From: Desulfobacterales bacterium
GTDB lineage: Bacteria > Desulfobacterota > Desulfobacteria > Desulfobacterales > UBA5616
DNA length: 64,000 nucleotides
Direction: 5' to 3'
NCBI GenBank assembly: GCA_046483495.1
Contig: JAWODC010000092.1
Span: forward strand, 32,001 to 96,000
Numbering within the stretch: position 1 is the first letter of the stretch; each line of letters starts with the position of its first letter. Made by a program: the position numbers and the translations under genes. Shown here one piece after another: positions 26,675 to 63,780 of this stretch. The notes beneath the pieces were generated by a model that was given only the letters and a program-made list of their open reading frames with translations, ran no database searches and had not been told where the DNA came from.

Positions 26675-27169
26675 TCAACCCGAGGAGAGTATGTTTTCGA
26701 TTACGTTCATGCCGTTTTCATCGATGATGCCCAACCTCATCGCCGTTTTTGGTTTCAGAAGCGCAAAATTTCCTTGCGAGGTTGCGCAAATGGTTTGGCG
26801 GCTGTCGGAAATTCTTCCTTCAACCAGGGCTTGGTTTCTGCCGGTCCGTTTTATCGGTGCGGCCCAGGCGGTGAGGGCTTCGCCGACAGAAACAGGTTTG
26901 ATGAAATCGATGGTCATGGATCTGGTCAACACGATTTTTTTCAGTACATGCAGAGCAGACCAACTCATGATTTCATCCAATATAACGGAGAGAATCCCGC
27001 CATGCACGAGTGGGCTCCATCCGCACATGAATTCAGGTACGGTTATGTGGGAAACGACGGATGTCTGATTTCCCAAAAATGTCATCTTCAGGCCGTAGGG
27101 GTTTGTCTGGGAGCATCCGAAACATTTATGGCTGTAACCTTTTGTCAGCGTTTTGTAGGCATCGGTCAT
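26675..27169 (-). CDS. PaaI/hotdog-fold thioesterase
   Basis: CFGC..NPYGL and HGG....LDE motifs. Confidence 0.88.
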   Translation of the reverse strand: MTDAYKTLTKGYSHKCFGCSQTNPYGLKMTFLGNQTSVVSHITVPEFMCGWSPLVHGGILSVILDEIMSWSALHVLKKIVLTRSMTIDFIKPVSVGEALTAWAAPIKRTGRNQALVEGRISDSRQTICATSQGNFALLKPKTAMRLGIIDENGMNVIENILSSG

Positions 27170-27748: not shown

Positions 27749-28723
27749 TTGAGATCGGATTCAGAACGTCTGGATAATTTATTCGAATTTTGGAAAAATA
27801 CGGCATTCGGGTTGAATTGGCCGTATGTATTTACGCTTCCGGTTTGGCTGAAAGCATGGTGGGCCGTTTTTGGAGAAAACCGCCGGACCGACATACGCAC
27901 CGTTTGGGACGGGCAGGAACTGCTCGGCATTGCCCCGCTGCAAAAAAACGGGCGTAAAGCATCATTTATTGGAAACGCCGACGTATGTGATTACCTGGAT
28001 TTTATCGTTTTGCCGCATAGGGCGGCATCCTTTTTTCACGGGTTTCTGGATGACTTGGTCTCGAGCGGTATCGATGTACTTGAATTGCGGTGTCTGCGTC
28101 CGGAATCCCATGGCATCAGCTGTTTCTTGCCGGTTCTGGAGGAGCGTTCCATTGCATTCGATCAAAAACCCGACGGCGTCTCCTTGGAAATGGAACTGCC
28201 CGCAGCATGGGATGACTACCTGGCGGGGCTTACATCGAAGCAGCGGCATGAAGTCAGACGCAAGCTCAGACGATTATACGAATCCGGTGACATTCGGTTT
28301 ATCGTATATGATAAGCCGGAAGATATTGCCGGCAACCGGGATGATTTTTTGAAGCTGTTCCGGAGAAGCCGGATGGATAAATCCGATTTCATGACCATGA
28401 AAATGGAATCCTTTTTTAAGACAGTCATGTCCGCGACTGTCGATGCGGGCCTGCTGAAAATGGCGATGCTGTATGTGAATCAGGTAAAGGCGGCGGCGCT
28501 GCTGTTTTTTGATTATAACGAAAGGATTTATCTGTATAACAGCGGATATGATCCGGAATGCGGCTCGATCAGTGTGGGGCTTCTGTCTAAGATTCTGCTC
28601 ATTCGTCATGGTATTTCCGAAAAAAAAAGGGTTTTTGATTTTTTAAGAGGAGACGAAGCTTACAAGTATCGTCTGGGAGGATGCGAAACGAGCCTCAGCA
28701 GAATCACTGTCCACTTGAAATAG
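27749..28723 (+). CDS. GNAT/Fem-like (CelD/BcsL, Acetyltransf_6-type) acyltransferase
   Basis: DYLDF, WDDYLAGL..KQRHEVRRKLRRL, LYNSGYDP and FDFLRGDEAYKYRLG motifs; TTG start uncertain. Confidence 0.8.
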   Translation: MRSDSERLDNLFEFWKNTAFGLNWPYVFTLPVWLKAWWAVFGENRRTDIRTVWDGQELLGIAPLQKNGRKASFIGNADVCDYLDFIVLPHRAASFFHGFLDDLVSSGIDVLELRCLRPESHGISCFLPVLEERSIAFDQKPDGVSLEMELPAAWDDYLAGLTSKQRHEVRRKLRRLYESGDIRFIVYDKPEDIAGNRDDFLKLFRRSRMDKSDFMTMKMESFFKTVMSATVDAGLLKMAMLYVNQVKAAALLFFDYNERIYLYNSGYDPECGSISVGLLSKILLIRHGISEKKRVFDFLRGDEAYKYRLGGCETSLSRITVHLK

Positions 28724-28767
28724 ATCATGAATGCCATGATTAAAAATAATTAAAGGATTGCACATCC

Positions 28768-30033
28768 ATGAAGATCGCCATGATCAGTATCCATAGTTGC
28801 CCCATCGGAGAGCTCGGCACCCGAGATACCGGGGGGATGAGCGTTTACATTCGGGAACTGGCAAAGGAACTTGGAAAAAGAGGCCATCGCGTCGACATCT
28901 ATACGCGTTATCATGGTGAAGGGCATGAGCCTGTCATGCAATTGACGGAAAATGTCAGACTGTTGCATATACGGGCCGGTGGCTGTGAAGATATGCATAA
29001 ACTTGCCGTTTATCCGTACGTGCGCGATTTTGCCGAAGAGCTCGACCGAATCCGGCACATCGATAACCTTCGATACGATTTGATTCACAACCATTATTGG
29101 CTGTCGGGTCTGGTCGGCAATTATTTGGCACGATGGTGGCGCATTCCTCAGGTCACCATGTTTCACACGCTTGGCGCCGTAAAGAACACCTTGAACATCG
29201 GAGAGCCGGAACCGGAATGCCGGATTTGCAGTGAAAGGGCCCTGGTGCATGCCGGCGGCATGATTATCGCTCCGACGGCCAAGGAAAAGCATGAGATTGT
29301 CAGATACTATGGCGCGGATCCGCAGACTGTTCGTGTGATCCCTTGCGGCGTTAACCAGAAGCTTTTCCAGCGCGTAAAGCGCGAAAAAGCCAGAAATCGC
29401 CTGGGTATCGGTATGGATGAGCATGTGCTGCTCTATGTCGGCCGGGTGGAGCCTTTAAAGGGGATAGACCGGTTGATACGGACCATGGCATGGCTGAAAA
29501 AACGCATCGACGTAAAATTGCTGATCGTAGGCGGCGATGATACGGGCCATCCCCGGATGCAGCAGATGAGAACCCTGGTTCGTAAACTTGACCTCGAAAA
29601 GTGTGTAGAATTCGCCGGAAGAGCCGACCAGGAGGACCTTCCAGGCTTTTATAGTGCGGCCGATGCCCTCGTAGTGGCCTCGCTTTATGAGAGCTTCGGG
29701 CTGGTCGCACTGGAAGCCATGTCCTGTGGAACCCCGGTTGTGTCGACGGCTGTCGGCGGGATGAGAAGTATCGTTCGTCAGGGTGTAACAGGATGCCTCA
29801 TCGGCGACGACACGGTGACCGGAATGGCACAATCCATCCTGCATATTCTCGATCATCCCGAGCTTTACTCCCATCGTGCCCGAGCCATTCGAAACTCGAT
29901 TTTACGATTTTCCTGGGAGAATATCGCCGCTTCCATGGCAGACGCTTACAAAGACCTCATTTCAGGATATTCACATCGGTTCTACGGGAAGCAGCGGCGG
30001 CGGTTTTGCCTCGATTGGGCTTCCAATGGTTAA
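28768..30033 (+). CDS. mshA: MshA-like GT4 glycosyltransferase (D-inositol-3-phosphate glycosyltransferase-like)
   Basis: IAMISIHSCP..LG..DTGGMSVY, VDIYTR, DLIHNHYWLSG, HTLGAVKN, GRVEPLKG and ESFGLVALEA all parallel MshA motifs. Confidence 0.75.
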   Translation: MKIAMISIHSCPIGELGTRDTGGMSVYIRELAKELGKRGHRVDIYTRYHGEGHEPVMQLTENVRLLHIRAGGCEDMHKLAVYPYVRDFAEELDRIRHIDNLRYDLIHNHYWLSGLVGNYLARWWRIPQVTMFHTLGAVKNTLNIGEPEPECRICSERALVHAGGMIIAPTAKEKHEIVRYYGADPQTVRVIPCGVNQKLFQRVKREKARNRLGIGMDEHVLLYVGRVEPLKGIDRLIRTMAWLKKRIDVKLLIVGGDDTGHPRMQQMRTLVRKLDLEKCVEFAGRADQEDLPGFYSAADALVVASLYESFGLVALEAMSCGTPVVSTAVGGMRSIVRQGVTGCLIGDDTVTGMAQSILHILDHPELYSHRARAIRNSILRFSWENIAASMADAYKDLISGYSHRFYGKQRRRFCLDWASNG

Positions 30034-30034
30034 G

Positions 30035-30128
30035 TAGTGCCCATCCAGAAATGTTTGCTATTTTGAGGATTTCGATTTTGGGTCCAACGCAGAAATCGCG
30101 TGGCAGGGCCATTTATGGATGGACACTG
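30035..30128 (-). repeat. Internally deleted copy of the palindromic element, subfamily B
   Basis: Both TIRs present; the right part matches the copy at 40296-40441; fills the gap between two convergent stop codons. Confidence 0.85.
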
Positions 30129-30129
30129 A

Positions 30130-31041
30130 CTATCGCTTCCTTTCATACCACGGGAGCGTATCGCGGACTTTAAAACCCATGGATCGATATAACCGAACGG
30201 CCGGCGTGTTGCTGCTGTCCGTGGTCAATTCAACCGCATGAACACCCTGGTGCTTCAACCTGCAAAGCCCCGCCTGCAGGGTTGCTTTTCCCAGGCCCCC
30301 GCCTCGATATGCAGGGTTTACGCCGATCATGTGAATTCGGCCTTTTTTTGCGCGCTGCACATCGGTTTTGGTCCAGCAGTACCCTACAGGCCGGTTGCCG
30401 TCGAATGTCACCAGAATGTCATTATGGGTGCCGCCGCACGTGAGGATTTCATACCGGACCTTTTCCACTGAGTTGGGATTGAACCCCCAGCTTCCCTTGA
30501 AGAATTCGTTTTGCATCATTGTCAGGAGATATTCCTGCCCTTTTTTTAAGCTCTTCAGCCTGAACGGATGCGGATCAGGCGCCTCGATTTTCCTGTCCCG
30601 TATGTTCAGATGCAGCTCGCTGTACTGACGAATGCGTTTGAATCCGTGCGCTTCCAAGAACGATTTTCCGGCCACGTTTGACTCCGAAATATTCGCATGA
30701 GTCACGTAAAGGCCGATTTCGCGTCCGCGCAATAGGGCCTTGGTGAGCAGCTCCGAACCGACCCCGTTTCTTCGGTATTCCGGATGAACGATGATGTTGA
30801 GCAGAACTCGACCTATCGCCGCTTCAGGAGCCAACTCGCAGATCCCGATTATTTTTCGGTTTGCCAGGGCGAGAAAAATATTTTCATCCGGACGGCAGCC
30901 CGGATAGTGCAAATGTTCGGTCAGTTGACTGGAAATTACATGCACACCGGATTCATTCATGCCTGTCAAAAATTGGTAAAATGACACAAGCATGTTGAAA
31001 TCCGAAGGGCTGAAATTCCTTATTTTTTTTTGAAGAACCAT
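30130..31041 (-). CDS. mshD: MshD-like tandem-GNAT acetyltransferase (mycothiol synthase-like)
   Basis: Two GNAT domains (VHPEYRRNGVG; VGYCWTK..GRIHMIGVNPAYRGGGLG..N..AVRLYRSMGF), ~300 aa. Confidence 0.65.
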   Translation of the reverse strand: MVLQKKIRNFSPSDFNMLVSFYQFLTGMNESGVHVISSQLTEHLHYPGCRPDENIFLALANRKIIGICELAPEAAIGRVLLNIIVHPEYRRNGVGSELLTKALLRGREIGLYVTHANISESNVAGKSFLEAHGFKRIRQYSELHLNIRDRKIEAPDPHPFRLKSLKKGQEYLLTMMQNEFFKGSWGFNPNSVEKVRYEILTCGGTHNDILVTFDGNRPVGYCWTKTDVQRAKKGRIHMIGVNPAYRGGGLGKATLQAGLCRLKHQGVHAVELTTDSSNTPAVRLYRSMGFKVRDTLPWYERKR

Positions 31042-31186
31042 ATGTCGATTTTTAACCGATGATGATATATAAATATACGATGATGTGTTCGGCTATCTTT
31101 TAAAAATTGGATTTTGGTCGCAATAAATAGAAACGTAGCAATTTTTTCGGGTTTGTTCAACGAAGGATATTCAAGAGGAAAATCGA

Positions 31187-31882
31187 ATGAGTGAAGCTGC
31201 TTACGCGATGGTGATTACACCTCATCCGGATGATTCCGAATTCGGTGTGGCCGGGACGGTAGCCAAATGGACCGGTGAAGGGAAAAGCGTAATTTATGTT
31301 GTCTGCACCAACGGGAACAAAGGTACGAACGACCGGACGACGTTGCCGGAAAAGTTGGCCGAAATCAGGGAAAAAGAACAGCGGGACGCAGCAAATGTAC
31401 TGAATGTGTCCGACGTTTTTTTCCTGGGATATCCGGATCAAGGTCTGGAAGACACATCGGAATTCAGGGGCCGAATCGTCCGGCTGATTCGGCGCCATCA
31501 ACCGGAAGTCGTTGTAACATCGGATCCGTATCGCCGGTATATATGGCATCGGGATCATCGAATTTGCGGCAGAGTGGTGCTGGATGCGGTCTTTCCCTGT
31601 GCACGGGACCACTTGTCCTATCCGGAATTACTGGTGGAGGGCCTCGAGCCCCACAAAGTGAGGGAAATGCTGTTCTGGGCGGCGGAGGATATCAATTACA
31701 GGGTGGATATTACCGAAACCTTTGACATTAAAATGCGGGCGCTTCGATGCCATCGAAGCCAGGTGGGGCACCTTGCCCGGAGCGTGCTCGAGGACCGGAT
31801 GAGAAAACGGCACAGCGGTTTCGCCGAGGAGGAGGACTTCGAATTGGCCGAAGCTTTCCACAGGGTGGCGATTCCGTTTTAG
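31187..31882 (+). CDS. PIG-L/LmbE-family N-deacetylase (MshB/Mca/BshB superfamily)
   Basis: HPDD and HRDH zinc motifs; R..E...A; HRSQ. Confidence 0.88.
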   Translation: MSEAAYAMVITPHPDDSEFGVAGTVAKWTGEGKSVIYVVCTNGNKGTNDRTTLPEKLAEIREKEQRDAANVLNVSDVFFLGYPDQGLEDTSEFRGRIVRLIRRHQPEVVVTSDPYRRYIWHRDHRICGRVVLDAVFPCARDHLSYPELLVEGLEPHKVREMLFWAAEDINYRVDITETFDIKMRALRCHRSQVGHLARSVLEDRMRKRHSGFAEEEDFELAEAFHRVAIPF

Positions 31883-31899
31883 GGCATGTTGAAGCGGAT

Positions 31900-32544
31900 T
31901 CAATCCTCAGAACGCCACAACACATCCCCGCAAAGGTCCGGGGGGTGGGGCTTGGAAGAAAAGGCCCGGTATGCCTCCTTCTCTTTTCCGATACGTGTGC
32001 CCTCTCCATGGCCGGGGAATACCCGTGTTTGCTCGGGCAGTACGAAAATTTTCTCTTCGATGGAGGTCTTTATCTGCAAAAAGGATGCCGGAGACCAGGT
32101 CTTTCCGGGCCCTCCCGGAAAAATCGTGTCGCCGGATATGAGAAAAGGGGCCCGGTAAAAGCAAATGCTTCCGGGTGTGTGCCCCGGCGTGTGCAGGACG
32201 TGCAGGGTGAGATTGCCGATTCTGATATCATCACCGTGCTTCAGGAGAATGTCCGGTTGAACCGGCATTTGCCCTGCATCGGAAGCATGGGCCGCAACGG
32301 GGGCCTTTAAATCGGATTTCAACTGGGCAAGCGCCCCGGTATGGTCCATATGGTGATGCGTCATCAGAATAAACTTTGGAAATGTCTCCTGCAAAGCGGT
32401 ATGCACTTTTTGAGGTTCTCCAGGGGCGTCAACGACAGCACTTTCCTTCGTTCCCATACAGACAATGATATAAGCATTCGTGCCATAAGGACCGAGGGAC
32501 ATTCGTTTGATAAAAAAATCCTGATCTTGCGCTGCGATATCCAT
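31900..32544 (-). CDS. MBL-fold hydrolase (glyoxalase II-like)
   Basis: THHHMDH, HTPGHT, GDT and PGHG motifs. Confidence 0.9.
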   Translation of the reverse strand: MDIAAQDQDFFIKRMSLGPYGTNAYIIVCMGTKESAVVDAPGEPQKVHTALQETFPKFILMTHHHMDHTGALAQLKSDLKAPVAAHASDAGQMPVQPDILLKHGDDIRIGNLTLHVLHTPGHTPGSICFYRAPFLISGDTIFPGGPGKTWSPASFLQIKTSIEEKIFVLPEQTRVFPGHGEGTRIGKEKEAYRAFSSKPHPPDLCGDVLWRSED

Positions 32545-32632: not shown

Positions 32633-33541
32633 TTACTTGTAAAACATGGTCTGAAACCTGCCGTCCACCATCACTACGCGGGATGGATCATCTTTTCTAA
32701 ACGGCTGCTTGTAGCCTTCAATGGTGTATTCCGGATCATGTGGCAGCTTAATGGCAAAACCGGATTCGGTTGAATAGAATTGCGGTAAAATAGGGCATAT
32801 GGTTTTTTCAGCAGCAGCCTTAAAGACATGATCGATGCTTGAATAACCGCTGAGTTCTTCAATTGTTTTCAGCGTCGGCGGCATCAGCAAGATTTCCCCA
32901 CCGGCATGTTTTTCCAATGCTTCCGCAGGTGTAAGCCACAGGGATTCGACCAGTTCAACGGCATCATGCATGGGTTTTTGGTGTTCCGGCATTCGGGCGA
33001 TGAAAAAACGGGTATCGAATCGTTTGCTTTCGATTTCCGGTGTAATCCAGCGGGCATATGGCCGCAAGAGATGGAATGTAAAGAAAATCGACAGTTTCCG
33101 GGCGATATCCTGCAGTGTCAGTTCGCCGCCATGCAGTTTTTTCCGATAGTCTGTTAAATACGCCTCGATCTCCGGATTTCCTGCCGGTCCAACGCTGTTT
33201 TCAGCAAAGTCGGCCAGTAAAACGCCGGCTTCTTCAAATGTTTCCCGCACCGCAGCAAAAAACAGCCCAATGGCTTTTTCTTTATTCGTTTCCGATTCGG
33301 CAAGCAGTCCGAAGGCGTCCTCCGCGGTAAGACCCTTCATCAGCGTCAACAGGACCGGATTGCAATCCGCCGGATCCAGGGCACCCCCGGGAAAGACAAA
33401 TGCACCGCCCATAAACCGCTGTTTTTTGTGGCGGCGCATCAGGAAAAGTTCAAATGGCTGTTTTTTGTTTTCTTTGAGGAGGATAACGGTTGCGGCATCC
33501 CTGGGTTCGACGGCACTGGATGGGGTGAATTTGTTTTCCAT
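32633..33541 (-). CDS. NUDIX hydrolase (NUDT19-like)
   Basis: VFPGG, AAVRETFEEAGV and WITP...RFDTRFF motifs. Confidence 0.88.
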   Translation of the reverse strand: MENKFTPSSAVEPRDAATVILLKENKKQPFELFLMRRHKKQRFMGGAFVFPGGALDPADCNPVLLTLMKGLTAEDAFGLLAESETNKEKAIGLFFAAVRETFEEAGVLLADFAENSVGPAGNPEIEAYLTDYRKKLHGGELTLQDIARKLSIFFTFHLLRPYARWITPEIESKRFDTRFFIARMPEHQKPMHDAVELVESLWLTPAEALEKHAGGEILLMPPTLKTIEELSGYSSIDHVFKAAAEKTICPILPQFYSTESGFAIKLPHDPEYTIEGYKQPFRKDDPSRVVMVDGRFQTMFYK

Positions 33542-40478: not shown

Positions 40479-41318
40479 TCAGTTTTCCCTGATGCCGGTC
40501 ATTTTGAATCCGACCGCCGCCCATCCTTTTTCATCTTCCAGGAAAATTCTTTCAAACCGTTCCGGCCTGTAAACCGATACAATATCCGCCATTTCTTTAC
40601 ATTTGATGCCTGAAAAGACCAAAAAAGACCCGGGCCATGAAATAGCCGGCAACAGAGGAGCCAGCTGAATAATGCCGGTGAACCGAAGATTGGCGGCAAT
40701 CAGGCAAAAGCGGGTGTCCAGACATTCAGCGGTTTTTTCTCGAACATCGAGGGCGCCGGTTAAATGATTCAGCTCGATGTTATGTCGAGCCTCGGCTACG
40801 GCGTTCGGATCGATGTCGATGCCCAACCCGTTGCAGCCCGTCAGTTTAGCAGCTGCAAGAATCAGAATGCCGGAGCCGGTTCCGACATCCAGGCAGGTGG
40901 GGTACTGAAAGGATGTCCTCAATGCGCATGCGATACGGTCGATGGCCCTGACCGCCAGGCGGGTCGAGGGATGCCGTCCGGTGCCGAAAGCGGCGCCGGT
41001 CATCAGGTTGATAACGACTTCACCGTTGTTCAGCACATAGGTTCTTTCAGGCGGTTTGACGATCACGCGTTTCGACATGCGGACCGGTTTGAGAATCGAC
41101 GGTTCGATAAACGTGCAGCCGTATTCATTCGTATAGGAAAGGGTCTCCTTTTTAACCAATTCATGGATGATTCTTCTGGACTGCTTCCGTGTGATCGAAA
41201 ATCGGCAATGGATTCGGTGTTCCAGGGCGTGGGGCGTAATTTTGCGGTTGGACGATGAAAACATTTCAAGGATTCCGGATTCAAACCCACCGGAATCTTC
41301 ATAGTGCCGATAATTCAT
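40479..41318 (-). CDS. PrmA-like SAM-dependent protein methyltransferase with atypical winged-helix-like N-terminus
   Basis: GAAFGTGRHPST, LDVGTGSGIL, DIDP.AV, AANL and FSGI motifs; start overlaps the dsrN stop. Confidence 0.85.
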   Translation of the reverse strand: MNYRHYEDSGGFESGILEMFSSSNRKITPHALEHRIHCRFSITRKQSRRIIHELVKKETLSYTNEYGCTFIEPSILKPVRMSKRVIVKPPERTYVLNNGEVVINLMTGAAFGTGRHPSTRLAVRAIDRIACALRTSFQYPTCLDVGTGSGILILAAAKLTGCNGLGIDIDPNAVAEARHNIELNHLTGALDVREKTAECLDTRFCLIAANLRFTGIIQLAPLLPAISWPGSFLVFSGIKCKEMADIVSVYRPERFERIFLEDEKGWAAVGFKMTGIREN

Positions 41319-42726
41319 GGGAGGACTTTTTCTTTTTCATAAAAGAAAGGGCATTCGAAACCAGGGAGGATGCCCAAGCGGGCAGGCCCAGAGTGTGAAT
41401 ATGGGTGTATGCGGCAAGGACGTTTTTTATGCATACACCGTCTCTACCGTACAAAAAACCGGCGCCTCGTTGCATGTGAAAAACCAGTTGATCCTCTGTC
41501 CCGAACCATTTCAGGACATTGGAATAATGAAATTCATGTCCCTTAAATACCGTTCCCACTTCCAGGAACGGATTCGGTTTGTCCACGCAGGCAACCGTAT
41601 AGCCCAGTCCCTGAGGCTTTTCGGAAATGCCGAAAACGGCAGGCAGAACGCCGGCCATGGGATACGTCGAATCGTTTATCACAAGCGATTCTCCAAGATA
41701 CATAAGTCCACCGCACTCGGCGTAAACGGGAAGTCCGTTTTTCACCATTGCCTTAAGCCGGCGTTTAAAAGCCGTGCCCGCTGAAAGCTTTTGGGCATGG
41801 GTTTCCGGAAAACCGCCCCCGATGTAAAGTCCATCCACGTCAGGCAGGTTGTCGTCGCTCAGAGGACTGATGAAAATGACAGAAGCGCCTGCTGTTTTCA
41901 GGGCGTCGATATTTTCCGGGTAATAAAACTGAAATGCCGCGTCTTTGAAAATGCCGATGCAGGGCCGCGCTTTTTCGACTTGCAGCGATGGTTCGGCGGT
42001 GCAGCCGGAAATGGCTGCTGTGTGCGGCGGCCGTGCCGAATGCCGTCCGGCGATGTCGACAACAGCGTCCAAATCGATGTGCTGTTCGGCAATCAAGGCT
42101 GTCTTCTCGACAGCTTCTTTCGCCCATTCATGCTCAGGCGTCGGGACCAGCCCCATGTGCCGTTCGGGAAAAATTTTATCCGGAATTTTCGGAACGGCGC
42201 CGATAACGGGAATGCCGCAGTGATGGTTGATTGTCTGGGTCAATATCCGTTCGTGTCGTGATCCGGCAACTCGGTTCAATACAATGCCGCCAAAGGCCAC
42301 GTTCGGGTCGAAGTGCATGAGCCCCAATATCATGGCTGCCATGGTTCGGGTGGTTTTCGTGCAATCAACCGCCAGAATCACCGGGGCTTGCAGCAGCTTG
42401 GCCAATTCAGCGGTGCTGGTTTTGCCGTGCAGGTCGATGCCGTCGAAAAGTCCCCGGTTTCCTTCAATGACGGCGATATCGCCGGGAGACGTGCGGGAAG
42501 AAAAAGACCTCAGAATTAGATCTTGCGATAGGATGAAGGTGTCCAGATTGAAGCACGGCCGACCGGCGGCGTATGCCAGCCAGCCTGCATCAATATAATC
42601 CGGTCCTTTTTTAAACGGAACGATTGAGAAATGTTTCTTTTTCAGGGCCGCGATCAATCCGATCGAAAGGATGGTTTTTCCTGACCCGCCGCCAAGAGCG
42701 GAAACAATGAATCTTCCGTATGTCAT
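41299..42726 (-). CDS. dsrN: Cobyrinate a,c-diamide synthase-like siroheme amidase DsrN
   Basis: GGSGKT, KKGPDYID, IEGNRGLFDG, ERHMGL, AECGG and GHEFHYS motifs; directly downstream of dsrD. Confidence 0.85.
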   Translation of the reverse strand: MTYGRFIVSALGGGSGKTILSIGLIAALKKKHFSIVPFKKGPDYIDAGWLAYAAGRPCFNLDTFILSQDLILRSFSSRTSPGDIAVIEGNRGLFDGIDLHGKTSTAELAKLLQAPVILAVDCTKTTRTMAAMILGLMHFDPNVAFGGIVLNRVAGSRHERILTQTINHHCGIPVIGAVPKIPDKIFPERHMGLVPTPEHEWAKEAVEKTALIAEQHIDLDAVVDIAGRHSARPPHTAAISGCTAEPSLQVEKARPCIGIFKDAAFQFYYPENIDALKTAGASVIFISPLSDDNLPDVDGLYIGGGFPETHAQKLSAGTAFKRRLKAMVKNGLPVYAECGGLMYLGESLVINDSTYPMAGVLPAVFGISEKPQGLGYTVACVDKPNPFLEVGTVFKGHEFHYSNVLKWFGTEDQLVFHMQRGAGFLYGRDGVCIKNVLAAYTHIHTLGLPAWASSLVSNALSFMKKKKSSHELSAL

Positions 42727-42786
42727 ACGCGTCTCGGCATGCGTCGGCAATATTCGGGTGAAGCTGAACCGGCCCTGCGGCGTTGA

Positions 42787-43029
42787 TTACTTCTCTTCGT
42801 GTTCGGCTGCAGCTTGTTTGCCTTTTCCGGAAAGACCGTACATGGAGGTGCTGCCGCTTGACCAATATTCGAGCACACCGTCCTGCACCAGTTGATTGAC
42901 TACTTTTTTGGCGTCCCTGGGTTTGGTTTCCAGGATTTTTGCCAGATCATTGAAATAAAATTTTGATTTCGTTTTAAGCTTCTTTGTCAGTTCGGTAACG
43001 ATTTTTTCTTTCGCCTCTTCGTATTCCAT
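42787..43029 (-). CDS. dsrD: Dissimilatory sulfite reductase-associated protein DsrD
   Basis: KSKFYFND and LEYWSSGSTSMYGL motifs. Confidence 0.96.
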   Translation of the reverse strand: MEYEEAKEKIVTELTKKLKTKSKFYFNDLAKILETKPRDAKKVVNQLVQDGVLEYWSSGSTSMYGLSGKGKQAAAEHEEK

Positions 43030-43052
43030 ATTGCGCCCCTTTTTTTATAGAT

Positions 43053-43079
43053 GCCGGTGGACGCGGTGCGTCCACCGGC
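43053..43079. other. Perfect 12-bp GC-rich hairpin between dsrB and dsrD
   Basis: GCCGGTGGACGC-GGT-GCGTCCACCGGC. Confidence 0.7.
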
Positions 43080-43097
43080 TTGTGCAAAAAAATTAAA

Positions 43098-44243
43098 TTA
43101 GAATTTGAATTGGGATGTTTGGCGCCAGGTATAGTATGCCGGATCACGGAAATCGTCGATCAGGTGGTGCGTAAAATCCAGTTCGCATGTTTGGAAGAAT
43201 CTTTCCCATCCGATTCTTTCCGCCCAATCCCCCAGCCTCTCGTATTTCCTGCCGTCGGCGGCATAGGCGTCTACGATCCGCTTGATGGTATCGGTCATGG
43301 TCGGCCAGCGCGGCATCTCATTTGGAATAAACGCCACGACAACCTTTGAGAATTTGGGGGTAGTGATTCGGTTGGATACTTTTCCGCCAACCATCAGAAC
43401 GATGCCGTCGCCTTCCCTGTCCGAAAGCGGCATCGAGGGGCACATGGTGTAGCAGTTTCCGCAGAACATGCATCGGTCATTATTGACTGCCACGCTCTTT
43501 ACCTCTTTATCACCAACCTTCACCTTGGCCGGTTTAATGGCGGCGGTGGGGCAGGCGGCAATGGCCAGCGGAATTTCACACATTTTGTCCAGGTATTCAT
43601 GGTCCAGCATGGGCGGCTTCCGGTGATACCCCAGAATAGCGATGTCGGAGCAATGAACCGCGCCGCACATGTTCAGACAGCAGGCCATGGATACGCGAAC
43701 GGGTGCCGGCATTCTGTGGTTTTTGAAATCATCGAACAGTACGTCCAATGTCGCTTTTACCGTACCCGAGGCGTCTGTTGCCGGGGTGTGGCAGTGAATC
43801 CAGCCCTGGGTGTGCACGATGTTGCTTATTCCGGCACCGGTTCCACCGATCGGAAATTTGAAGCTGCCCCCGTCGAATTTTCGGCTTTCCAGATCTTTGA
43901 CCAACGGATCCAACTTCTCCTTACTGTCCACCATAAACTCGATATTGTTACGGGTGGTGAAGCGCATGTGGCCGCCGCAGTGCTTTTCGGCGATTTCGCA
44001 GATCTCACGGATCATGGTGGTGCTCATGATGCGGGCGCCGCCGCAGCGAACCGTATACACTTCATCACCGGTTTCGGAAACATGAACCAGAACGCCGGGC
44101 TTTAGAATTTCATGGTACAGCCATTTACCCTTGTTTTTGGCGATGACCGGAGGGTAAAACGCGTCGTATTTTTTCGGGCCGATATCGGTGATCCGGTTTT
44201 CCATGGGTTTGTCCGGATTGTAACCTGAAGAAATAAATGCCAT
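43098..44243 (-). CDS. dsrB: Dissimilatory sulfite reductase beta subunit
   Basis: [32 protein letters not shown] and CMFCGNC motifs. Confidence 0.98.
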
Positions 44244-44256
44244 GATTATCCCCCTC

Positions 44257-45573
44257 CTATCTCTGATGGTGTTTTCTATATTCGTTGATGTCGCGTTCCC
44301 AGCCGCCTTCGACTTCGTCTTCCTTCCAGAAGATGTACGGATTGTGACGGGGTTCCTGCACCATTTGCGGCACCGGATCCACACCCATCATCTCGAGCAG
44401 CTTCTGCAGACCCTGGCGTTTCATCAGTTCGCCGAGACGTTCACGGTTTTTGCCTTCTTCCATCCACCAATCCCAGATGGGTTCGATGACATTTTCCTTG
44501 ATTTCCGTATAGGGCTCTTCGACTTTTATGAACGGGACGATCAATGATCCCATCTGGGCACCGTCCAGAATCGGGGCCTTGGCGCCGGCGAAAATGGAGA
44601 CGCCGCGGTCATTTCCAATTCTCAGGGCCCTGGGCATGACGTTGATGCAGTGCATGCAGCGTGTGCATTCCTTGTTGTCGATGACGAGTTTTCCGTTTTC
44701 CATCGCCATGCATTGGGTGGGGCATAAGGCGATGACTTCTTTCTGAATATCGAAGGGACCCCAGTCGCGGCCTGAATGGGCGCCGGCATTGGGAGGCAAT
44801 TCGCCGCCGATATAGGCCTGAACCGCTTCCTGGTCAATCCGGATTTCATCTCTCCAGGTGCCGATGAAGGACAAGTCGGCGCGGGCGATGGATGCTACGC
44901 AGCAGTTGGGGCAGCCGTCGAACTTGAATTTGAACTTGTAGGGGAAGGCCGGCCGGTGAAGCTCGTCCTGGTACTCCTGGGTCAGGTCATAGCAGATCGC
45001 CTGGGTGTCGTAGCAGGAAAATTCACAGCGTGAATCGCCGATGCAGTCCGCGGGGGTTCTGAGGTTCGAACCCGATCCGCCAAGGTCCTGCCCCAAATTG
45101 TGCGTCAGTTCGAAGAAGACTTCCTCCAGTTGCGGCGTTGTCGTTCCAAGAAAAATGATATCGCCTGTCGATCCATGCATATTGGTGATGCCGCTTCCTC
45201 TCAAGTCCCACAAATCACAAATCTTTTTTAAGTATTCAGACGTATAATATTTACCGCCGGGTTGTGCCACACGCATGGTATGAAAGTGGGCGACACCCGG
45301 GAATTGCTGGGGCTGGTCGCAGTAGCGGCCGATAACGCCGCCGCCATAACCGAACACGCCGACGATGCCGCCGTGCTTCCAGTGGGTGGTGCCGTCGGAG
45401 TAAGACAATTCGAGAATGCCCAAGAGATCTTCCACGACATCTGCGGGAATTTGAAATTCAATGCCTTCTTCATTCTTCGCCCTTTTTTCCGCCTGTTGTT
45501 TCAGGTCTGAAACAAAACTCGGCCATGGCCCAGACTCGAGCTGGTCCAACAAAGGGGTTTTATGCTTTGCCAT
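44257..45573 (-). CDS. dsrA: Dissimilatory sulfite reductase alpha subunit
   Basis: [24 protein letters not shown]...GCPNCC siroheme motif, CTRCMHC. Confidence 0.98.
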
Positions 45574-55802: not shown

Positions 55803-58800
55803 TCATATCCCCATCTCGATCGGCATGGGAACGGAGCAGGTCACCGGGAATTCTTTCATTTGGCCCGGCCCGATGACATATTCCTGTTCATTGTGGCTGA
55901 TTTTGATCGGCGGCTGATCACTGGGCAGGACGTATATTCTCAGGGTCTCTGAATCAACATCGATTTCCAATGTGTGACCCCTGTAACGAAGATGCATATG
56001 GAAAAATTCAAGCTCTTCGGGCAGACAGGGGTTGAACCGAAGCACCCTGTCCCTCACTTCGAGTCCCGTGTATCCCCGGGTGACCATGTCCACGGTTCCG
56101 GCCATGGCGCCGAGATGAATGCCTTCTTTCGTAGTGCCGCCCTGTATGTCTTCGATATCACTTTTCAGCGCCTCGCAGAAATGGCTCCAGGAGCCGGCCC
56201 GCGTGGCCCGGGCAAGAACCCACGAATGCACCACCCGGCTCAGGGTGGATCCATGGGAGGTGCGCTTTAAATAGTACGATATTGTTTTTGGAATCCATTC
56301 AGGGTCGAAGGTATACCCCAATCGGTCGAAAAGCCTATCGAGTTCCTCGGCGGACAACAGATAAAAGAGCATCAGGGTATCGGCCTGCTTGGACAACTTA
56401 TAGCGGTTGGGCGTATCCCCCTCCGCCTCGAGAATGCGGTCGAGACGGTGGATGTCGCCGTATTTTGCCCTGTATTTCGGCCAGTCGAATTCTTCCAGTT
56501 TGTCGAATCCCTCGAATTGGGCGAGGACGTTGTCTTCGATAAACACAACCTTCATTTTCCTGCTGACGGCATCCCATCGCCGCATTTCAGCCGAATTCAA
56601 ATTCAGCTTGGAGCAAAGTTGAAGCCGCCGCTCCAATGGAATGATGTCCAGCATCCAGAGCGCTCGACTGAGGACCCAAACGGTCATGACATTGGTGTAC
56701 GTATTGTTGTTCAAACCCGGCTCATCGGAATCGGGGTAAGCATCGTGATATTCATCCGGCCCCATGACGTTTTTCATTTCATACCGGTTCGAGGCCTTAT
56801 CGTAGGACGTTAGACTTGCCAGAAAACGGGCGATTTCAAGCAGCATTTCCGCACCGTAAAACGACATGAATTCGATATCATCGGTTACTTGATAATAAAG
56901 CCAGAGATTGTAGGCGATAGCGATGTTGACATGCCGCTGCAAATGAGAATTGTCCGGGAGCCACCGGCCGGACTTCGGGTTGTAATGCACCACCTGTGTT
57001 TCTTCACGACCGTTGCTTCCGCTCTGCCAGGGGTACATGGCCCCTTCATGGCCGGCGTTTTTCGCCGCCTGCCGGGCGGCGTCAAGTCGGTAGTAGCGGT
57101 ACATCAAGAGAGAACGGGTGATTTCCGGAAGCCTGAAATTCAAAAACGGGAAGATAAACAGCTCGTCCCAAAAAATATGGCCCCTATAGGCTTCGCCGTG
57201 CCAGCCTCTGGCTGGGACGCCGACGTCGATATCGATGGTGTGAAGGGAAACCGTCTGCAGAATATGAAAGATGTATAAATGGGTGATCAACCCGATGCGA
57301 TTGTCCCCGTCGCGGTTCTCGAACCTGAACTGGACATTGAATCGGCGCCATAGGTGCCACCACGCCCGAATGTGTGTCATGAGCAGATCATGAAACGATC
57401 CGGCTCTCTTCACGGCCGATCGGGCCTCGAGGCCGCATTCGGAGATGGCGTAATCCCGTGACGTATAGAGGGAGACGATTTTTTCCACCGTCAGGGTATC
57501 GCCCGTATGCAGCGATACCCGGGCGGTCTGCTCGATATAGCCTTCCCGAATCTCGTGCTGCCACTGTAATTGTATGGGTTCCAAATTATTGAAAACCCGG
57601 GTTCTGGCGGCAAGTGCCACACGAATATCGGATTGTGAGGTGCGGACTTTGAGGTACAGCGTTTCCGGATTTACGGCAAACGCTTCCATGGGACGGAGAT
57701 GCCGGCTGTTCAGGTCTTTGTAGCGCTCCACTCCCGCGTTGGTCACCGTGCCGTCCAACGCGCTGCGGATATCCACCTCCCCGGACCAGTTTACCGCCAT
57801 CAGGTTGATTTCCTCGGCAGCCATGTGGGCGTTTTCCATGTGGACGAATCGCCTGCAAAACAAAATCGATTCCCGGCCCTGCTTATCACGGAAACGAACC
57901 TCTCGATGCAAAATACCGCTTTTGATGTCCAGTTCCTGCCGGTACATAAGAATATCGACGTGCTTCAGTTCGACCCATCGGCCGCCGTCGATTCGAAATT
58001 GAACCGGAAGCCAGTTCGGCATGTTGACAAGGTCCTCGTTTACTATGATACGGCCCGCCACTTCAGTGCCCAGCCGGTTATAACCTCCTGCAAGATACAT
58101 CCCCGGGTAATGGATGTCGTCGGCATGCGATTCCGCAGCGGCCCCCCGTGTTGCAAAGTAGCCGTTGCCCAGTGTGCAGAGCGCTTCACGGAGACCCTCT
58201 TCGGTCGGTATAAAACCCGTGTAGGTGAGCCACCATTGGTGACGGGTTTCACGTGCGGTGCCGGTCAGAAATTGCAAAAACTGCCGGACCTCCTCCGTAC
58301 TGTCAACGGCGAAATGCGCATAGGTGGGTCGGGAGTGCTTGTCACGGACGATAACGCCAAGGCCGCCGATACGCCCCAACTCTCTGAAAGCGTCTTCATC
58401 CGTCGTGTCATCTCCGATATATATGGGGAGAACATCCGGCCGGTCCAGCTGCAGTTTTTCCAGCAGCCACAGCAGCGCCTTGCCCTTGTGCCAATCTATG
58501 GCGGGTTTTAATTCGAAAACCTTTTTTCCGGTTGATTTGCGGAATTCTTCAAATTCCTCCAGGACCTCATCCAGTCCGGCTTCGATTTTAGGCACATCAT
58601 CATCGGCTGCCTGCCGAAAATGTACAGCTATGGAAAATTTTTTGTGCTCAACCACCGCGCCGTGGATCGGTTCGAGTTTCTTTTTCAATGCCTGTGCGAC
58701 CCGCTCGAGGGCCGGGATAAATTCGGTCCCCTTTTCGTGCCGGATTTGCTGATATCCGGGTGCTGCGATATCGAATCCGTGGCTCCCGCCGTAGAGCAGC

Positions 58801-59093
58801 GGGTCAAGACCAACCAGCGATTTCACATCTTCGAGATCCCTCCCGCTCAAAATGGAAACCGTGCAGTACGTTGCGAGATCCTTCAATGTTTCCCGCATGG
58901 ATTCCGACATCACGGCGAGCTCGGGCCGTTCGACGATGGGGGTCAGGGTGCCGTCATAATCCAGAAAAACGGCAAATTTTTTATTATCGGAGATTTCCTT
59001 TATGTCCTCGGACCTCACCAGAGCCGAGGATAGACTCCCCGTATTGGACTGGGAATCGGTAATCGCTGGTATCGGGATAATGTCTGCTTCCAT
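55803..59093 (-). CDS. otsB: Trehalose-6-phosphate phosphatase (OtsB) fused to a GH65 glycoside phosphorylase/hydrolase
   Basis: HAD motifs DYDGTL, SGR and [10 protein letters not shown]65 motifs LGNGY..RG, GHIFWDE, GPDEYH, KQAD and HGSTLS. Confidence 0.92.
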
Positions 59094-61365: not shown

Positions 61366-62253
61366 TCAGGTTGTTTCCAGCGCCTCGAACCCTGAAACAA
61401 TGTCTAAAAGTTCACCGGTAATCGCCATTTGCCGGCGACGGTGGTATTCCATACTTAAATCGTCGAGCTCTTCCTGAATATTTTTTTCCGCCTGCTGCAT
61501 GGATTGAAGGCGACTTTGATTTTCACTGGCCATCGATTCGGCAAATGCCTTGTAAATGGCTGTAAACAGATGCTGCTTGATCAGGGATGAAAACATGGCG
61601 GTCGTATCCATCGTAATCATGGGTAGACATCGACTCGGCCATTCTTTTTTCTTCAATTCTTCCACCCACTGCTGATCGATGGGAAGCAGCCGTTCAGCAT
61701 GCGGCAAAAAGCCGGTTTTCTCCGGTTTTATGCTGTAATAAAGCCAGATCCGGCGTGGTGACCAGCGCCTTTCCCACTCGTCGATAACCGAGAGAATATC
61801 CTGGACATGAGAGGTGATGCCCGCCACGGACCCCGGGACCCGGATATAAGCGTCAACCGGGTGACCCACGCGTTCCAATTTGCGTTTCATGCGGGCTCCG
61901 ACGGCGATAAACCGCATGTTCCCCGTTTCGGGCGGGAGAGATTGCCGCAGATGCTTCAGCGTATGGTTGAGAACGACATCATTGAGCTGTCCGGCCATGC
62001 CCTGGTCGGAACCGAACACAACGGCACCGACGTGACCGTCCCGTGTTTTTCGGTCTTCTGCAAGAGGCGGCAAAGGATGCGACACCACCACCTGCATCGC
62101 CATGTCGATCGTGCGGGAAAACGCTCGAAGTGAGAGCACGGCTTTCTCGTATTGCTTGATTCTCACAGATGCCATCGCTTTCATGGTTTTAACCACCGAT
62201 TCCAAATCCGTGACACTGTCGATTTTTCGTTTTAATGCTTCAATGGTCTGCAT
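61366..62253 (-). CDS. atpG: F1 gamma subunit (N-type ATPase)
   Basis: VVKTMKAMA, GSDQGMAG, ASENQSRL..M and RQ..IT.EL motifs. Confidence 0.93.
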   Translation of the reverse strand: MQTIEALKRKIDSVTDLESVVKTMKAMASVRIKQYEKAVLSLRAFSRTIDMAMQVVVSHPLPPLAEDRKTRDGHVGAVVFGSDQGMAGQLNDVVLNHTLKHLRQSLPPETGNMRFIAVGARMKRKLERVGHPVDAYIRVPGSVAGITSHVQDILSVIDEWERRWSPRRIWLYYSIKPEKTGFLPHAERLLPIDQQWVEELKKKEWPSRCLPMITMDTTAMFSSLIKQHLFTAIYKAFAESMASENQSRLQSMQQAEKNIQEELDDLSMEYHRRRQMAITGELLDIVSGFEALETT

Positions 62254-62256
62254 ATG

Positions 62257-63780
62257 TTAATCCATGTGCAAGGCACGCTGCGCCGCCTTTATTAATGCCT
62301 CGATTTCCGCATCGCCGATTTTTTCACCGGATTCGATTTTCCGGCATACCTCCGGAAGCGTATCCGATACCTCCCTACTGATCTTCTCGATGGCTGCGGG
62401 CACCTCATTAAGGTTGAATGCGTCGAATATCCCTTCGTTCAGGGAAACGAGAGCGGCAATTTGTTCACATACGGGCATAGGGTGGTACTGGGGCTGTTTA
62501 AACGCTTCTCGTATTCTTCGTCCCCTCACCAGCGTTGAGCGGGTTTCTTCGTCCATCTGCGTGCCGAATCGGGCGAAAGTTTCCAACTCTTCGAATTGGG
62601 AATAGGCCAGGCGCAGGTCTCCCGATACCGTTCGAAATGCCGGCAGCTGGGTCTTCCCCCCCACCCTGCTGACCGAGCGTCCCACATCCACAGCCGGCAG
62701 AATTCCCTTCCTGAAGAGATCGGGAGACAGGTAAATCTGTCCATCCGTAATTGAAATCAGGTTGGTCGGAATGTATGCGGATATGTTCTGCGCCTCGGTT
62801 TCGACAATCGGCAGGGTGGAAAGGGATCCTCCTCCGCCCTCCTTTTTCAGGTGCGTTGAACGCTCCAAGAGCCGCGAATGAATGTAGAATATGTCGCCGG
62901 GAAATGCCTCTCTTCCGGGCGGCCTTCGCAAAAGAAGAGCGATTTCCCTGTAGGCCCTTGCATGCCGGGTAAGGTCATCAAGCACCACTAAAACATCCAT
63001 TCCCCGGTCCATGAAAAATTCTCCCACTGCCATGGCGGCGTATGGGGTGATATATTGCAGGCCCGGTGGATCTTCCTCGGTTGAAACTACGGCGACACTG
63101 TATTTCATGGATTCGTAACGGCGCAGATCATCGATTAATTTTGCAACGGCGGACGCCCTTTTGCCGATGCCGCAGTAGATGCAGACCATATCCCCCTCGT
63201 TCTGGTTGATAATGATGTCGAGGGCTATCGCTGTTTTGCCGGTTTGACGGTCGCCGATAATGAGCTGCCGTTGTCCCCGGCCGATGGGAATCAGGGCATC
63301 GATGATTTTAATTCCCGTCTGTAGCGGAACCGTTACCGGCAATCGGTCCATCATGGAGGGTGCAGGCTTTTCCAGGGGATAGCGGCGGTCGCTTTTGATC
63401 GGCATCCCATCGTCAAGGGTTTCCCCCATGCCATTGACTATTCGGCCCAAAAGGGATTCGCCGACAGGTATCGTGAGGATTTCACCGGTCAAATAGACTT
63501 CATTGCCTGCTGCCAGGTGTTTGTTGTCATCTAACAGAACGATTCCGGTTTCCGTTTCTCTCAGGTCGAAGGCGATTCCGTATGCTGCACCCGGCAATCG
63601 AATCATCTCCTGGTTTCGTACGCCGGAAAGTCCCGTTGCCCGTATAATGCCCGGCCCGATATAGGTGATCGTGCCGACGTTTTGGACGGTGAGCTCCGGT
63701 GGCAGGGATTTTCCGGCGTTTTCGATGACCTCGGCGGCGCCGTCAAGTGATCTTTTTAGAATACTGGTGTTTTCGTTCAT
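62257..63780 (-). CDS. atpA: F1 alpha subunit (N-type ATPase)
   Basis: GDRQTGKT, RRPPGREAFPGD and SVSRVGG motifs. Confidence 0.96.
   Translation of the reverse strand: MNENTSILKRSLDGAAEVIENAGKSLPPELTVQNVGTITYIGPGIIRATGLSGVRNQEMIRLPGAAYGIAFDLRETETGIVLLDDNKHLAAGNEVYLTGEILTIPVGESLLGRIVNGMGETLDDGMPIKSDRRYPLEKPAPSMMDRLPVTVPLQTGIKIIDALIPIGRGQRQLIIGDRQTGKTAIALDIIINQNEGDMVCIYCGIGKRASAVAKLIDDLRRYESMKYSVAVVSTEEDPPGLQYITPYAAMAVGEFFMDRGMDVLVVLDDLTRHARAYREIALLLRRPPGREAFPGDIFYIHSRLLERSTHLKKEGGGGSLSTLPIVETEAQNISAYIPTNLISITDGQIYLSPDLFRKGILPAVDVGRSVSRVGGKTQLPAFRTVSGDLRLAYSQFEELETFARFGTQMDEETRSTLVRGRRIREAFKQPQYHPMPVCEQIAALVSLNEGIFDAFNLNEVPAAIEKISREVSDTLPEVCRKIESGEKIGDAEIEALIKAAQRALHMD

Follow-up and report, generated by a model that had tools for sequence, protein, structure and literature searches.

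The question raised by the locus described here is how cysteine could be joined to an amino sugar in an anaerobic sulfate reducer which carries genes resembling those of mycothiol biosynthesis and in which no MshC was found. The locus lies in a window of 64,000 nucleotides (contig JAWODC010000092.1, positions 32,001 to 96,000, of the Desulfobacterales assembly GCA_046483495.1; the window denotes this whole stretch) and comprises five adjacent genes, among them one for a Fem-like GNAT protein. Mycothiol is made by MshA, MshA2 and MshB together with MshC and MshD according to the available part of PMC6178380; it is regarded as an actinobacterial hallmark. The answer suggested here, which we hold to be fairly probable, is that the cluster makes cysteinyl-glucosaminyl-inositol (Cys-GlcN-inositol) from Cys-tRNA, which is acetylated in this organism to mycothiol or a close analogue. 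The five genes are as follows.

27749-28723, plus strand: Fem-fold double-GNAT protein (PF13480), proposed aminoacyl(Cys)-tRNA:GlcN-inositol ligase replacing MshC
28768-30033, plus strand: MshA-like GT4 glycosyltransferase, proposed UDP-GlcNAc:inositol-1-phosphate transferase (GlcNAc, N-acetylglucosamine)
30130-31041, minus strand: MshD-like tandem GNAT acetyltransferase, an optional member, proposed to acetylate the Cys amine
31187-31882, plus strand: PIG-L zinc de-N-acetylase, proposed for the step from GlcNAc-inositol to GlcN-inositol
31900-32544, minus strand: glyoxalase II-like hydrolase of metallo-beta-lactamase fold, proposed thioester hydrolase on thiol conjugates

All five open reading frames, on strands + + - + -, were recovered as the original prediction had described them, and the motifs named there (HSCP..DTGGMSVY, HYWLSG, HTLGAVKN, GYCWTK and HPDD/HRDH) were confirmed in them. 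As only the GNAT and glycosyltransferase genes are co-oriented, the five genes form a cluster and not one operon. Its conservation, which had likewise been predicted, was borne out by the adjacency of these two genes in relatives, genome loci and metagenome loci. The glycosyltransferase was found at an E value of 1e-60 or better in 10 of 40 relatives, including all five of the organism´s own family, and in nine of these ten the GNAT gene lies directly 5' of it, the tenth glycosyltransferase sitting at a contig edge. Among the best 80 genome loci of the GNAT search, mostly titled Dehalococcoidia or Chloroflexota, and the best 80 metagenome loci (more loci exist), the glycosyltransferase is encoded by the next gene after that of the GNAT in 72/76 and 58/59 loci, respectively, having at least 600 bp downstream, and the complete five-gene set is present in 31/50 and 15/20 of those having at least 4.5 kb downstream. 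Among the matches listed, the nearest GNAT locus bearing a name is titled Desulfobacteraceae (52% identity). Within the phylum, a GNAT profile was positive in 56 of 301 genomes, at least two of these positives being unrelated family members, as of 20 neighbourhoods fetched from GNAT-positive genomes two (G355 and G323; G, L and f numbers denote other genomes, loci and families) hold unrelated PF13480 genes without the glycosyltransferase. In one genome (G033) the cassette is split over two contigs, one with the GNAT-glycosyltransferase block and one with a hydrolase-deacetylase-acetyltransferase block. Apparent GNAT-glycosyltransferase fusions in G108 and G381 turned out to be merely long open frames in GC-rich DNA. 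A recent gain of the cassette from Dehalococcoidia is unsupported, the glycosyltransferase and GNAT of the window grouping with same-phylum sequences outside the Chloroflexota-rich clade in quick, midpoint-rooted trees computed without a clade test.

The lack of MshC in the window, from which a replacement had been predicted, was found to extend further. No MshC over cut-off was found in the genome carrying the window (G000; 96.7% complete, 94 contigs, given as C numbers) or in 60 cassette genomes, 50 of which were taken from the best 80 genome loci, mainly those on longer contigs, and 10 from the relatives; BshC was found neither in G000 nor in 70 cassette genomes, and glutathione synthetase was not found in G000 (0/1). 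Three genes resembling that of cysteinyl-tRNA synthetase (CysRS) are present in G000, namely CysRS, a CysK-CysRS fusion and a 421-residue paralogue, all of which score better as CysRS than as MshC, while the five family relatives possess only two such genes each and most Chloroflexota cassette genomes a single one, or none was found. Two of them were considered as a hidden MshC. The CysK-CysRS fusion was rejected, being present in 13/46 cassette as compared to 26/34 non-cassette genomes of a fixed panel (negatives defined for 26 by glycosyltransferase and for 8 by GNAT search), and the 421-residue paralogue was rejected as a general ligase on account of its better CysRS score and of being unseen in the five family relatives. 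The fusion (G000:C21:1082-3403, minus strand) is widespread in the order and carries altered HIGH and KMSKS motifs in its CysRS half; the paralogue (G000:C27:77650-78915) shows changed zinc-site motifs (WNIQD, HHDY) and is without an anticodon tail.

The candidate for the missing step is the first protein of the cluster, for which a Fem-like nature had been claimed and a Fem/MprF aminoacyl-tRNA transferase fold was found in the predicted model. By sequence it scores 90 bits with PF13480 and weakly (19.6 bits) with FemAB_like; nothing in the PDB was matched by its profile, and an ESM Atlas search returned only clusters of the same family. With the AlphaFold2 model (predicted local distance difference test, pLDDT, 95.2), Foldseek ranked FemX and Sbb17/Sba18 (streptothrisamine) first, with FemA and MprF also among the best folds. 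The top nine rows of a VIA-align comparison are of Fem/MprF type (Z 16.6-21.2), one row being an unannotated protein; FemX aligns with Z 21.2 and a root-mean-square deviation (rmsd) of 3.7 over 291 residues and Sbb17 with streptothrisamine with Z 20.6 and rmsd 3.4 over 270 residues, as compared to at most 15.1 for other tandem GNATs and 13.1 for MshD.

Residues R166, R171, K172, D81, K211, E303, Y305 and K306 are kept in 133-136 of 136 diverse relatives, and those regarded as tRNA-transferase features (R166, R171, K172, R174 and K306) in 131-136, whereby the YK motif is formed by Y305 (135/136) and K306 (136/136). A basic helix spans K164-R175, and helix 163-178 averages 7.6 lysines or arginines across the 136 relatives. 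As described in the available part of PMC12945691, FemX binds tRNA via a basic helix of its C-terminal domain and has Lys305 as reactive residue, and Orf11 glycylates streptothrisamine, an amino sugar, with Gly-tRNA as donor. K306 would be the counterpart of FemX K305, as judged from position alone and not from a residue-level superposition. C80, invariant in close relatives, is unlikely to be catalytic, because it is kept in only 92/136 of the wider set. At the loop where GNATs bind the coenzyme A (CoA) pyrophosphate, whose equivalence is suggested by topology, the protein reads YxxLSVG and not R/QxxGxG; a global regular expression for the CoA motif is not position-specific (69/136 versus 79/79) and hence was not used. 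The GNAT was unseen in a Nocardia record which, being partial and without mshC, is uninformative. Fold, conservation and lack of MshC thus agree with the predicted transfer of Cys from aminoacyl-tRNA, in which donor and acceptor are presumed.

For the second protein, the best PDB match is C. glutamicum MshA (E 4e-71). Of the residues which we take to form the inositol-phosphate pocket of MshA, H9, G22, G23, Y110, H133, T134, R152 (=R154) and R226 (=R231) are kept in 92/92 rows, M24 in 91/92, K78 in 83/92 and D20 in 76/92, and at M24 and T134 the protein is like MshA and unlike the four other GT4 proteins compared. The distribution of ino1 points in the same direction: it was found in 8/10 cassette as compared to 8/30 other relatives (4/5 of the family relatives), in 41/50 cassette genomes of the best genome loci and in 52/55 GNAT-positive genomes of the phylum as compared to 13/25 negative ones, the 25 being a subset of 245 negatives. 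In G038, ino1 lies 20 bases after the deacetylase gene, co-oriented and followed by a HAD phosphatase gene; it is convergent to the glycosyltransferase gene in 8/8 genomes of family f88 and 2/2 of f67, the glycosyltransferases of which are divergent, and an inositol monophosphatase (IMPase) gene adjoins that of the glycosyltransferase in family f75. An IMPase homologue is encoded on contig C69 of G000, and in relatives an IMPase or a HAD gene stands next to the cassette.

The PIG-L protein keeps HPDD and HRDH in at least 90% of 111 rows and has diacetylchitobiose deacetylase as best PDB match (E 6e-37); that of the MshD-like protein is mycothiol synthase (E 3e-12). Of the 50 genome loci, mainly of Dehalococcoidia, that extend 4.5 kb or more downstream, 36 carry the MshD-like gene and 43 the hydrolase gene. 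In the phylum, the former was found in 4/59 GNAT-positive and 0/21 negative genomes; therefore the core would consist of GNAT, glycosyltransferase and deacetylase with a free-amine product, to which acetylation was added in this family.

Further genes linked to thiols and to cysteine lie outside the window. An Mca/MshB-type amidase (MshB 209 versus a cut-off of 224, Mca 211 versus 277 bits) and, immediately after it, a DinB protein for which mycothiol S-transferase (MST) is the best model (79 bits, under cut-off) are encoded at G000:C46:103581-104990 (L245:7582-8991), a pair which is kept in family relatives and some Chloroflexota loci and whose actinobacterial namesakes form a mycothiol detoxification pair (PMC6178380, available part). 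The amidase occurs in 16/46 cassette and 0/34 non-cassette genomes and the MST family in 19/46 and 0/34, five members being over cut-off; one DinB protein beside a cassette (L050) passes the MST cut-off with 191.5 versus 170 bits. In a Dehalococcoidia genome (G048), an MST-like gene lies one gene from ino1 (L303:7984-11217), and the cassette glycosyltransferase frame of this genome is short (324 residues in L118). A protein over the cut-off of TIGR03084 with a mycothiol maleylpyruvate isomerase N-terminal domain is encoded beside a CoA-transferase-like gene (G000:C93:10686-11474) and is a possible further thiol-dependent enzyme.

An S51 hydrolase joined to a CysRS anticodon-binding domain (S51-CysS_C) is often encoded directly upstream of the GNAT and was found in 28/46 cassette and 0/34 non-cassette genomes, one further match, a CysRS tail, being uncounted. 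Residues corresponding to E. coli CysRS R427, D436 and R439, which are anticodon-domain residues (PMC13449415, available part), are conserved in 31/31 full-length rows, and Ser-His-Glu-type motifs are invariant in all 34 rows of the alignment, three of which are N-terminal fragments. The G000 fusion (C27:39109-40182; L272:3110-4183, minus strand) has 357 residues as compared to about 417 in relatives and lacks most of the helical bundle. In several relatives, two genes for Gfo/Idh/MocA oxidoreductases, possibly serving inositol or sugar conversion, stand between the fusion and the GNAT (L017:2520-5175, L018:3689-6491, L236:8841-11574).

The enzymatic roles and the product constitute a proposal, set upon the observed genes, motifs, conservation and co-occurrence and upon the predicted GNAT fold, whereby the inositol, thiol and cysteine roles are supported by the ino1, Mca/MST and S51-CysS_C genes outside the window. 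Initially, the GT4 protein would transfer GlcNAc from UDP-GlcNAc to myo-inositol-1-phosphate, as suggested by its MshA-like pocket and the ino1 linkage, and a phosphatase encoded elsewhere would strip the phosphate from the product, upon which PIG-L deacetylation would yield GlcN-inositol. Next, the Fem-fold GNAT would move Cys from Cys-tRNA(Cys), the presumed donor, to the glucosamine amine, the presumed acceptor, without ATP, giving Cys-GlcN-inositol. In the organism´s own family and in most Dehalococcoidia the MshD-like GNAT would then acetylate the Cys amine to mycothiol or a close analogue, whereas in most other cassette members of the phylum the route would end with the amine left free. 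The thiol may be used and recycled by the glyoxalase II-like hydrolase, the C46 amidase and the DinB S-transferase, and the S51-CysS_C protein (C27) may be an accessory that serves in supplying or proofreading Cys-tRNA or in trimming the product.

A number of findings weigh against this proposal, and the alternatives draw on them. The deacetylase scores 104 bits with BshB2, 103 with BshB1, 76 with Mca and 46 with MshB, all under cut-off, so that of the predicted deacetylation step the conserved zinc motifs stand while the protein itself resembles BshB and chitobiose deacetylase more than MshB. The MshD-like protein reaches 95 bits with TIGR03448, its best family, versus a cut-off of 163; its predicted identity is favoured by this best model, and its place in the pathway proved optional. 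For the hydrolase, the glyoxalase II model TIGR03413 gives 102 bits versus a cut-off of 201. The thiol-using partners are missing from over half of the tested cassette genomes. The genomes compared for co-occurrence are moreover related and incomplete, and the contrasts of counts, Fisher values included, overstate significance.

Further points of this kind concern the aglycone. On the MshA model TIGR03449 the glycosyltransferase reaches 332 bits, which is under the cut-off of 462.5, the next family giving 148 and a Nonomuraea MshA 641; BshA gives 141 bits, under its cut-off of 273.7. N25 is replaced by S in 80/92 rows. In a tree of 102 rows, from which segments of fewer than 300 residues or with stops were dropped, the window protein falls inside a well-supported clade of 83 rows, the relation of which to three actinobacterial MshA proteins and other GT4 proteins is an open fork. 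The predicted MshA-likeness hence holds for the best model and PDB match and the pocket, and not for the cut-off, while the tree places the protein neither inside nor outside the MshA clade. Of mshC, bshC and ino1, none was found in the 96.7% complete assembly G000, a result in favour of a replaced ligase and against the inositol step; the CDP-alcohol phosphatidyltransferase gene that neighbours ino1 is likewise missing. Because ino1 adjoins this gene in G001, G005 and G033, part of the ino1 correlation may stem from inositol lipids.

On these grounds, the glycosyltransferase might, in this organism if not elsewhere, glycosylate a different phosphorylated polyol, the product then being a new Cys-glucosaminide thiol and not mycothiol. 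The undetected ino1, the N25 exchange, the score below the MshA cut-off and a sucrose-phosphate-synthase-like protein (6kih, E 2e-62) as third PDB match favour this reading, which is nevertheless unlikely given that ino1 is present in 4/5 family relatives, that ino1 or an IMPase gene adjoins the cassette in four other families and that M24 and T134 are as in MshA, unlike in four other GT4 proteins. The gap in G000 is moreover plausible, since orthologues of two neighbours of ino1, the genes which follow it in G001 and G002, stand at the start of contig C38. A comparison of public contigs with this start is uninformative on ino1, no piece extending much beyond the contig end in this repetitive region.

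A product other than a thiol appears improbable. GT4 and PIG-L enzymes also begin the synthesis of lipids of the glycosylphosphatidylinositol type, and in the present case they could make glucosaminyl-phosphatidylinositol or a soluble glucosaminide, to which the Fem/MprF-fold enzyme would add a residue other than Cys, yielding an aminoacyl lipid or osmolyte. MprF structures among the fold matches and the phosphatidyltransferase gene beside ino1 fit such a route, yet it leaves the MshD-like and glyoxalase II-like genes unexplained, as well as the MST, Mca-type and tRNA(Cys)-reader genes seen in cassette genomes only, and the MshA pocket is kept in the glycosyltransferase.

Equally improbable is that the S51-CysS_C protein is the true cysteinyl transferase, forming an acyl-enzyme from Cys-tRNA, while the GNAT performs another step. 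Its invariant motifs and kept anticodon residues, its gene often heading the cassette and its occurrence within the phylum (26/30 cassette genomes versus 0/34) would suit this role. In the mostly Chloroflexota set, the fusion was found in only 2/16 cassette genomes, a count which also weighs on the main proposal, and a profile recheck of three of the remaining genomes matched only CysRS tails; its not being found in 14/16 contrasts with the nearly constant GNAT-glycosyltransferase pair. Modelling the GNAT and the S51-CysS_C protein as a complex (score 0.00) yielded evidence in neither direction.

Since PF13480 is very large (12,132 representatives at E 1e-10) and one NCBIfam relative, weakly matched by the GNAT, is described as a crotonyl transferase, the fold does not fix the donor, which again weighs against Cys-tRNA. 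Even so, an acyl-CoA or acyl-carrier transferase placing a non-amino acyl group on glucosamine, for which the annotation as CelD/BcsL-type acetyltransferase, that weak match and the low FemAB_like score would speak, is very improbable, given a fold that resembles tRNA-dependent enzymes more than tandem GNATs using acyl-CoA, the basic helix 163-178, the YxxLSVG reading at the presumed CoA-pyrophosphate loop and how little would be gained by re-acylating a freshly deacetylated amine.

Returning to the proposed tRNA-dependent route to Cys-GlcN-inositol, the cassette works like the mycothiol pathway of Actinobacteria (MshA, MshA2, MshB, MshC, MshD, with Mca and MST) and, by the test of MshC, is not a member of it. 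Common to both are the MshA-like glycosyltransferase, the MshD-like acetyltransferase, the ino1 linkage and, in G000, an amidase of Mca/MshB type (211/209 bits) encoded next to an MST-like DinB protein; the cassette differs in its hosts (Thermodesulfobacteriota and Dehalococcoidia), in the Fem-fold GNAT standing in the cluster where MshC is lacking, in its clustered genes, its BshB/Dac-like deacetylase and optional MshD and in that all five scores are under cut-off. With bacillithiol synthesis (BshA, BshB, BshC) it shares the order of a GT4 protein, a PIG-L deacetylase, for which BshB models score best, and cysteine ligation, and cassettes without MshD would likewise give a free-amine thiol; in contrast, its glycosyltransferase scores 141 bits with BshA as compared to 332 with MshA, BshC was found in 0/71 genomes and its linkage is to ino1, not malate. 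The Fem-type aminoacyl-tRNA transferases (Orf11, Sba18 and Sbb17 of streptothricin analogues, FemX, MprF) resemble the GNAT in the full-length double-GNAT fold (Z 20.6-21.2 over 270-291 residues), the basic helix and the conserved aromatic-Lys pair near the C-terminus, and differ from it in sharing only 10-16% identity and in the lack of a sequence-level PDB match.

In the main texts covered, which include only a minority of subscription papers, no account of the cassette was found. Donors given for Fem-type enzymes in the available part of PMC12945691 are Gly, Ala, Ser, Leu and Lys tRNAs; that part contains no Cys-tRNA-using Fem-fold enzyme, the Cys-tRNA user TglB being a PEARL. As far as the accessible text of PMC6282198 goes, complete mshA-D sets were found only in Actinobacteria, and the available part of a preprint on Binatota (10.1101/2020.09.14.296780) gives mshABC by annotation outside Actinobacteria and mentions no Fem-type enzyme. 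MshC is described as tRNA-independent and Fem ligases as tRNA-dependent in PMC2922099, in the available part of which the two are not joined.

A wider claim, to our judgement evenly poised, is that mycothiol or desacetyl-mycothiol arises in anaerobic Thermodesulfobacteriota and Dehalococcoidia through cysteine ligation of a third kind, besides those of MshC and BshC, carried out by a FemX-fold enzyme with Cys-tRNA(Cys) and aided in many lineages by the S51 protein as reader of the tRNA(Cys) anticodon; if true, the thiol buffer of the cell would be tied to translation. The route may be an anaerobic alternative to, or a forerunner of, the actinobacterial pathway. If right, a thiol buffer would be named for about one fifth of the sampled genomes of the phylum (56/301, at least two of them unrelated) and many Dehalococcoidia, a tRNA-dependent, ATP-free cysteine ligase would join thiol biochemistry, and a function would be assigned to one branch of PF13480, a large family of which little is characterised. 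The present case contributes the complete set of five genes in a sulfate reducer, an amidase gene paired with that of an S-transferase, and co-occurrence counts with controls.

Elsewhere in the window, one further group of genes concerns the identity of the host.

41302-45573, minus strand: dsrA, dsrB, then a CbiA/CobB-type amidase gene, on the same contig as the cassette

The dsrA gene (44260-45573) encodes a protein over its family cut-off, and its presence in the window supports the designation of the host as sulfate-reducing and makes a binning artefact less likely. The amidase following dsrAB is presumably dsrN-like. A promoter scan yielded 5 sites as compared to 6.8 by chance, i.e., chance level, and a terminator scan 11 as compared to 7.2 expected (standard deviation 2.7). 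The cassette is flanked by genes for a hotdog thioesterase upstream (26675-27169) and a NUDIX hydrolase downstream (32633-33541), an arrangement shared only by several relatives of the family. A protein of 1096 residues encoded at 55806-59093 on the minus strand joins a trehalose-phosphate phosphatase to a GH65 glycoside phosphorylase/hydrolase, and the window ends with genes for the alpha and gamma subunits of an ATP synthase (61369-63780, minus strand), which we assume may belong to a second, N-type operon.

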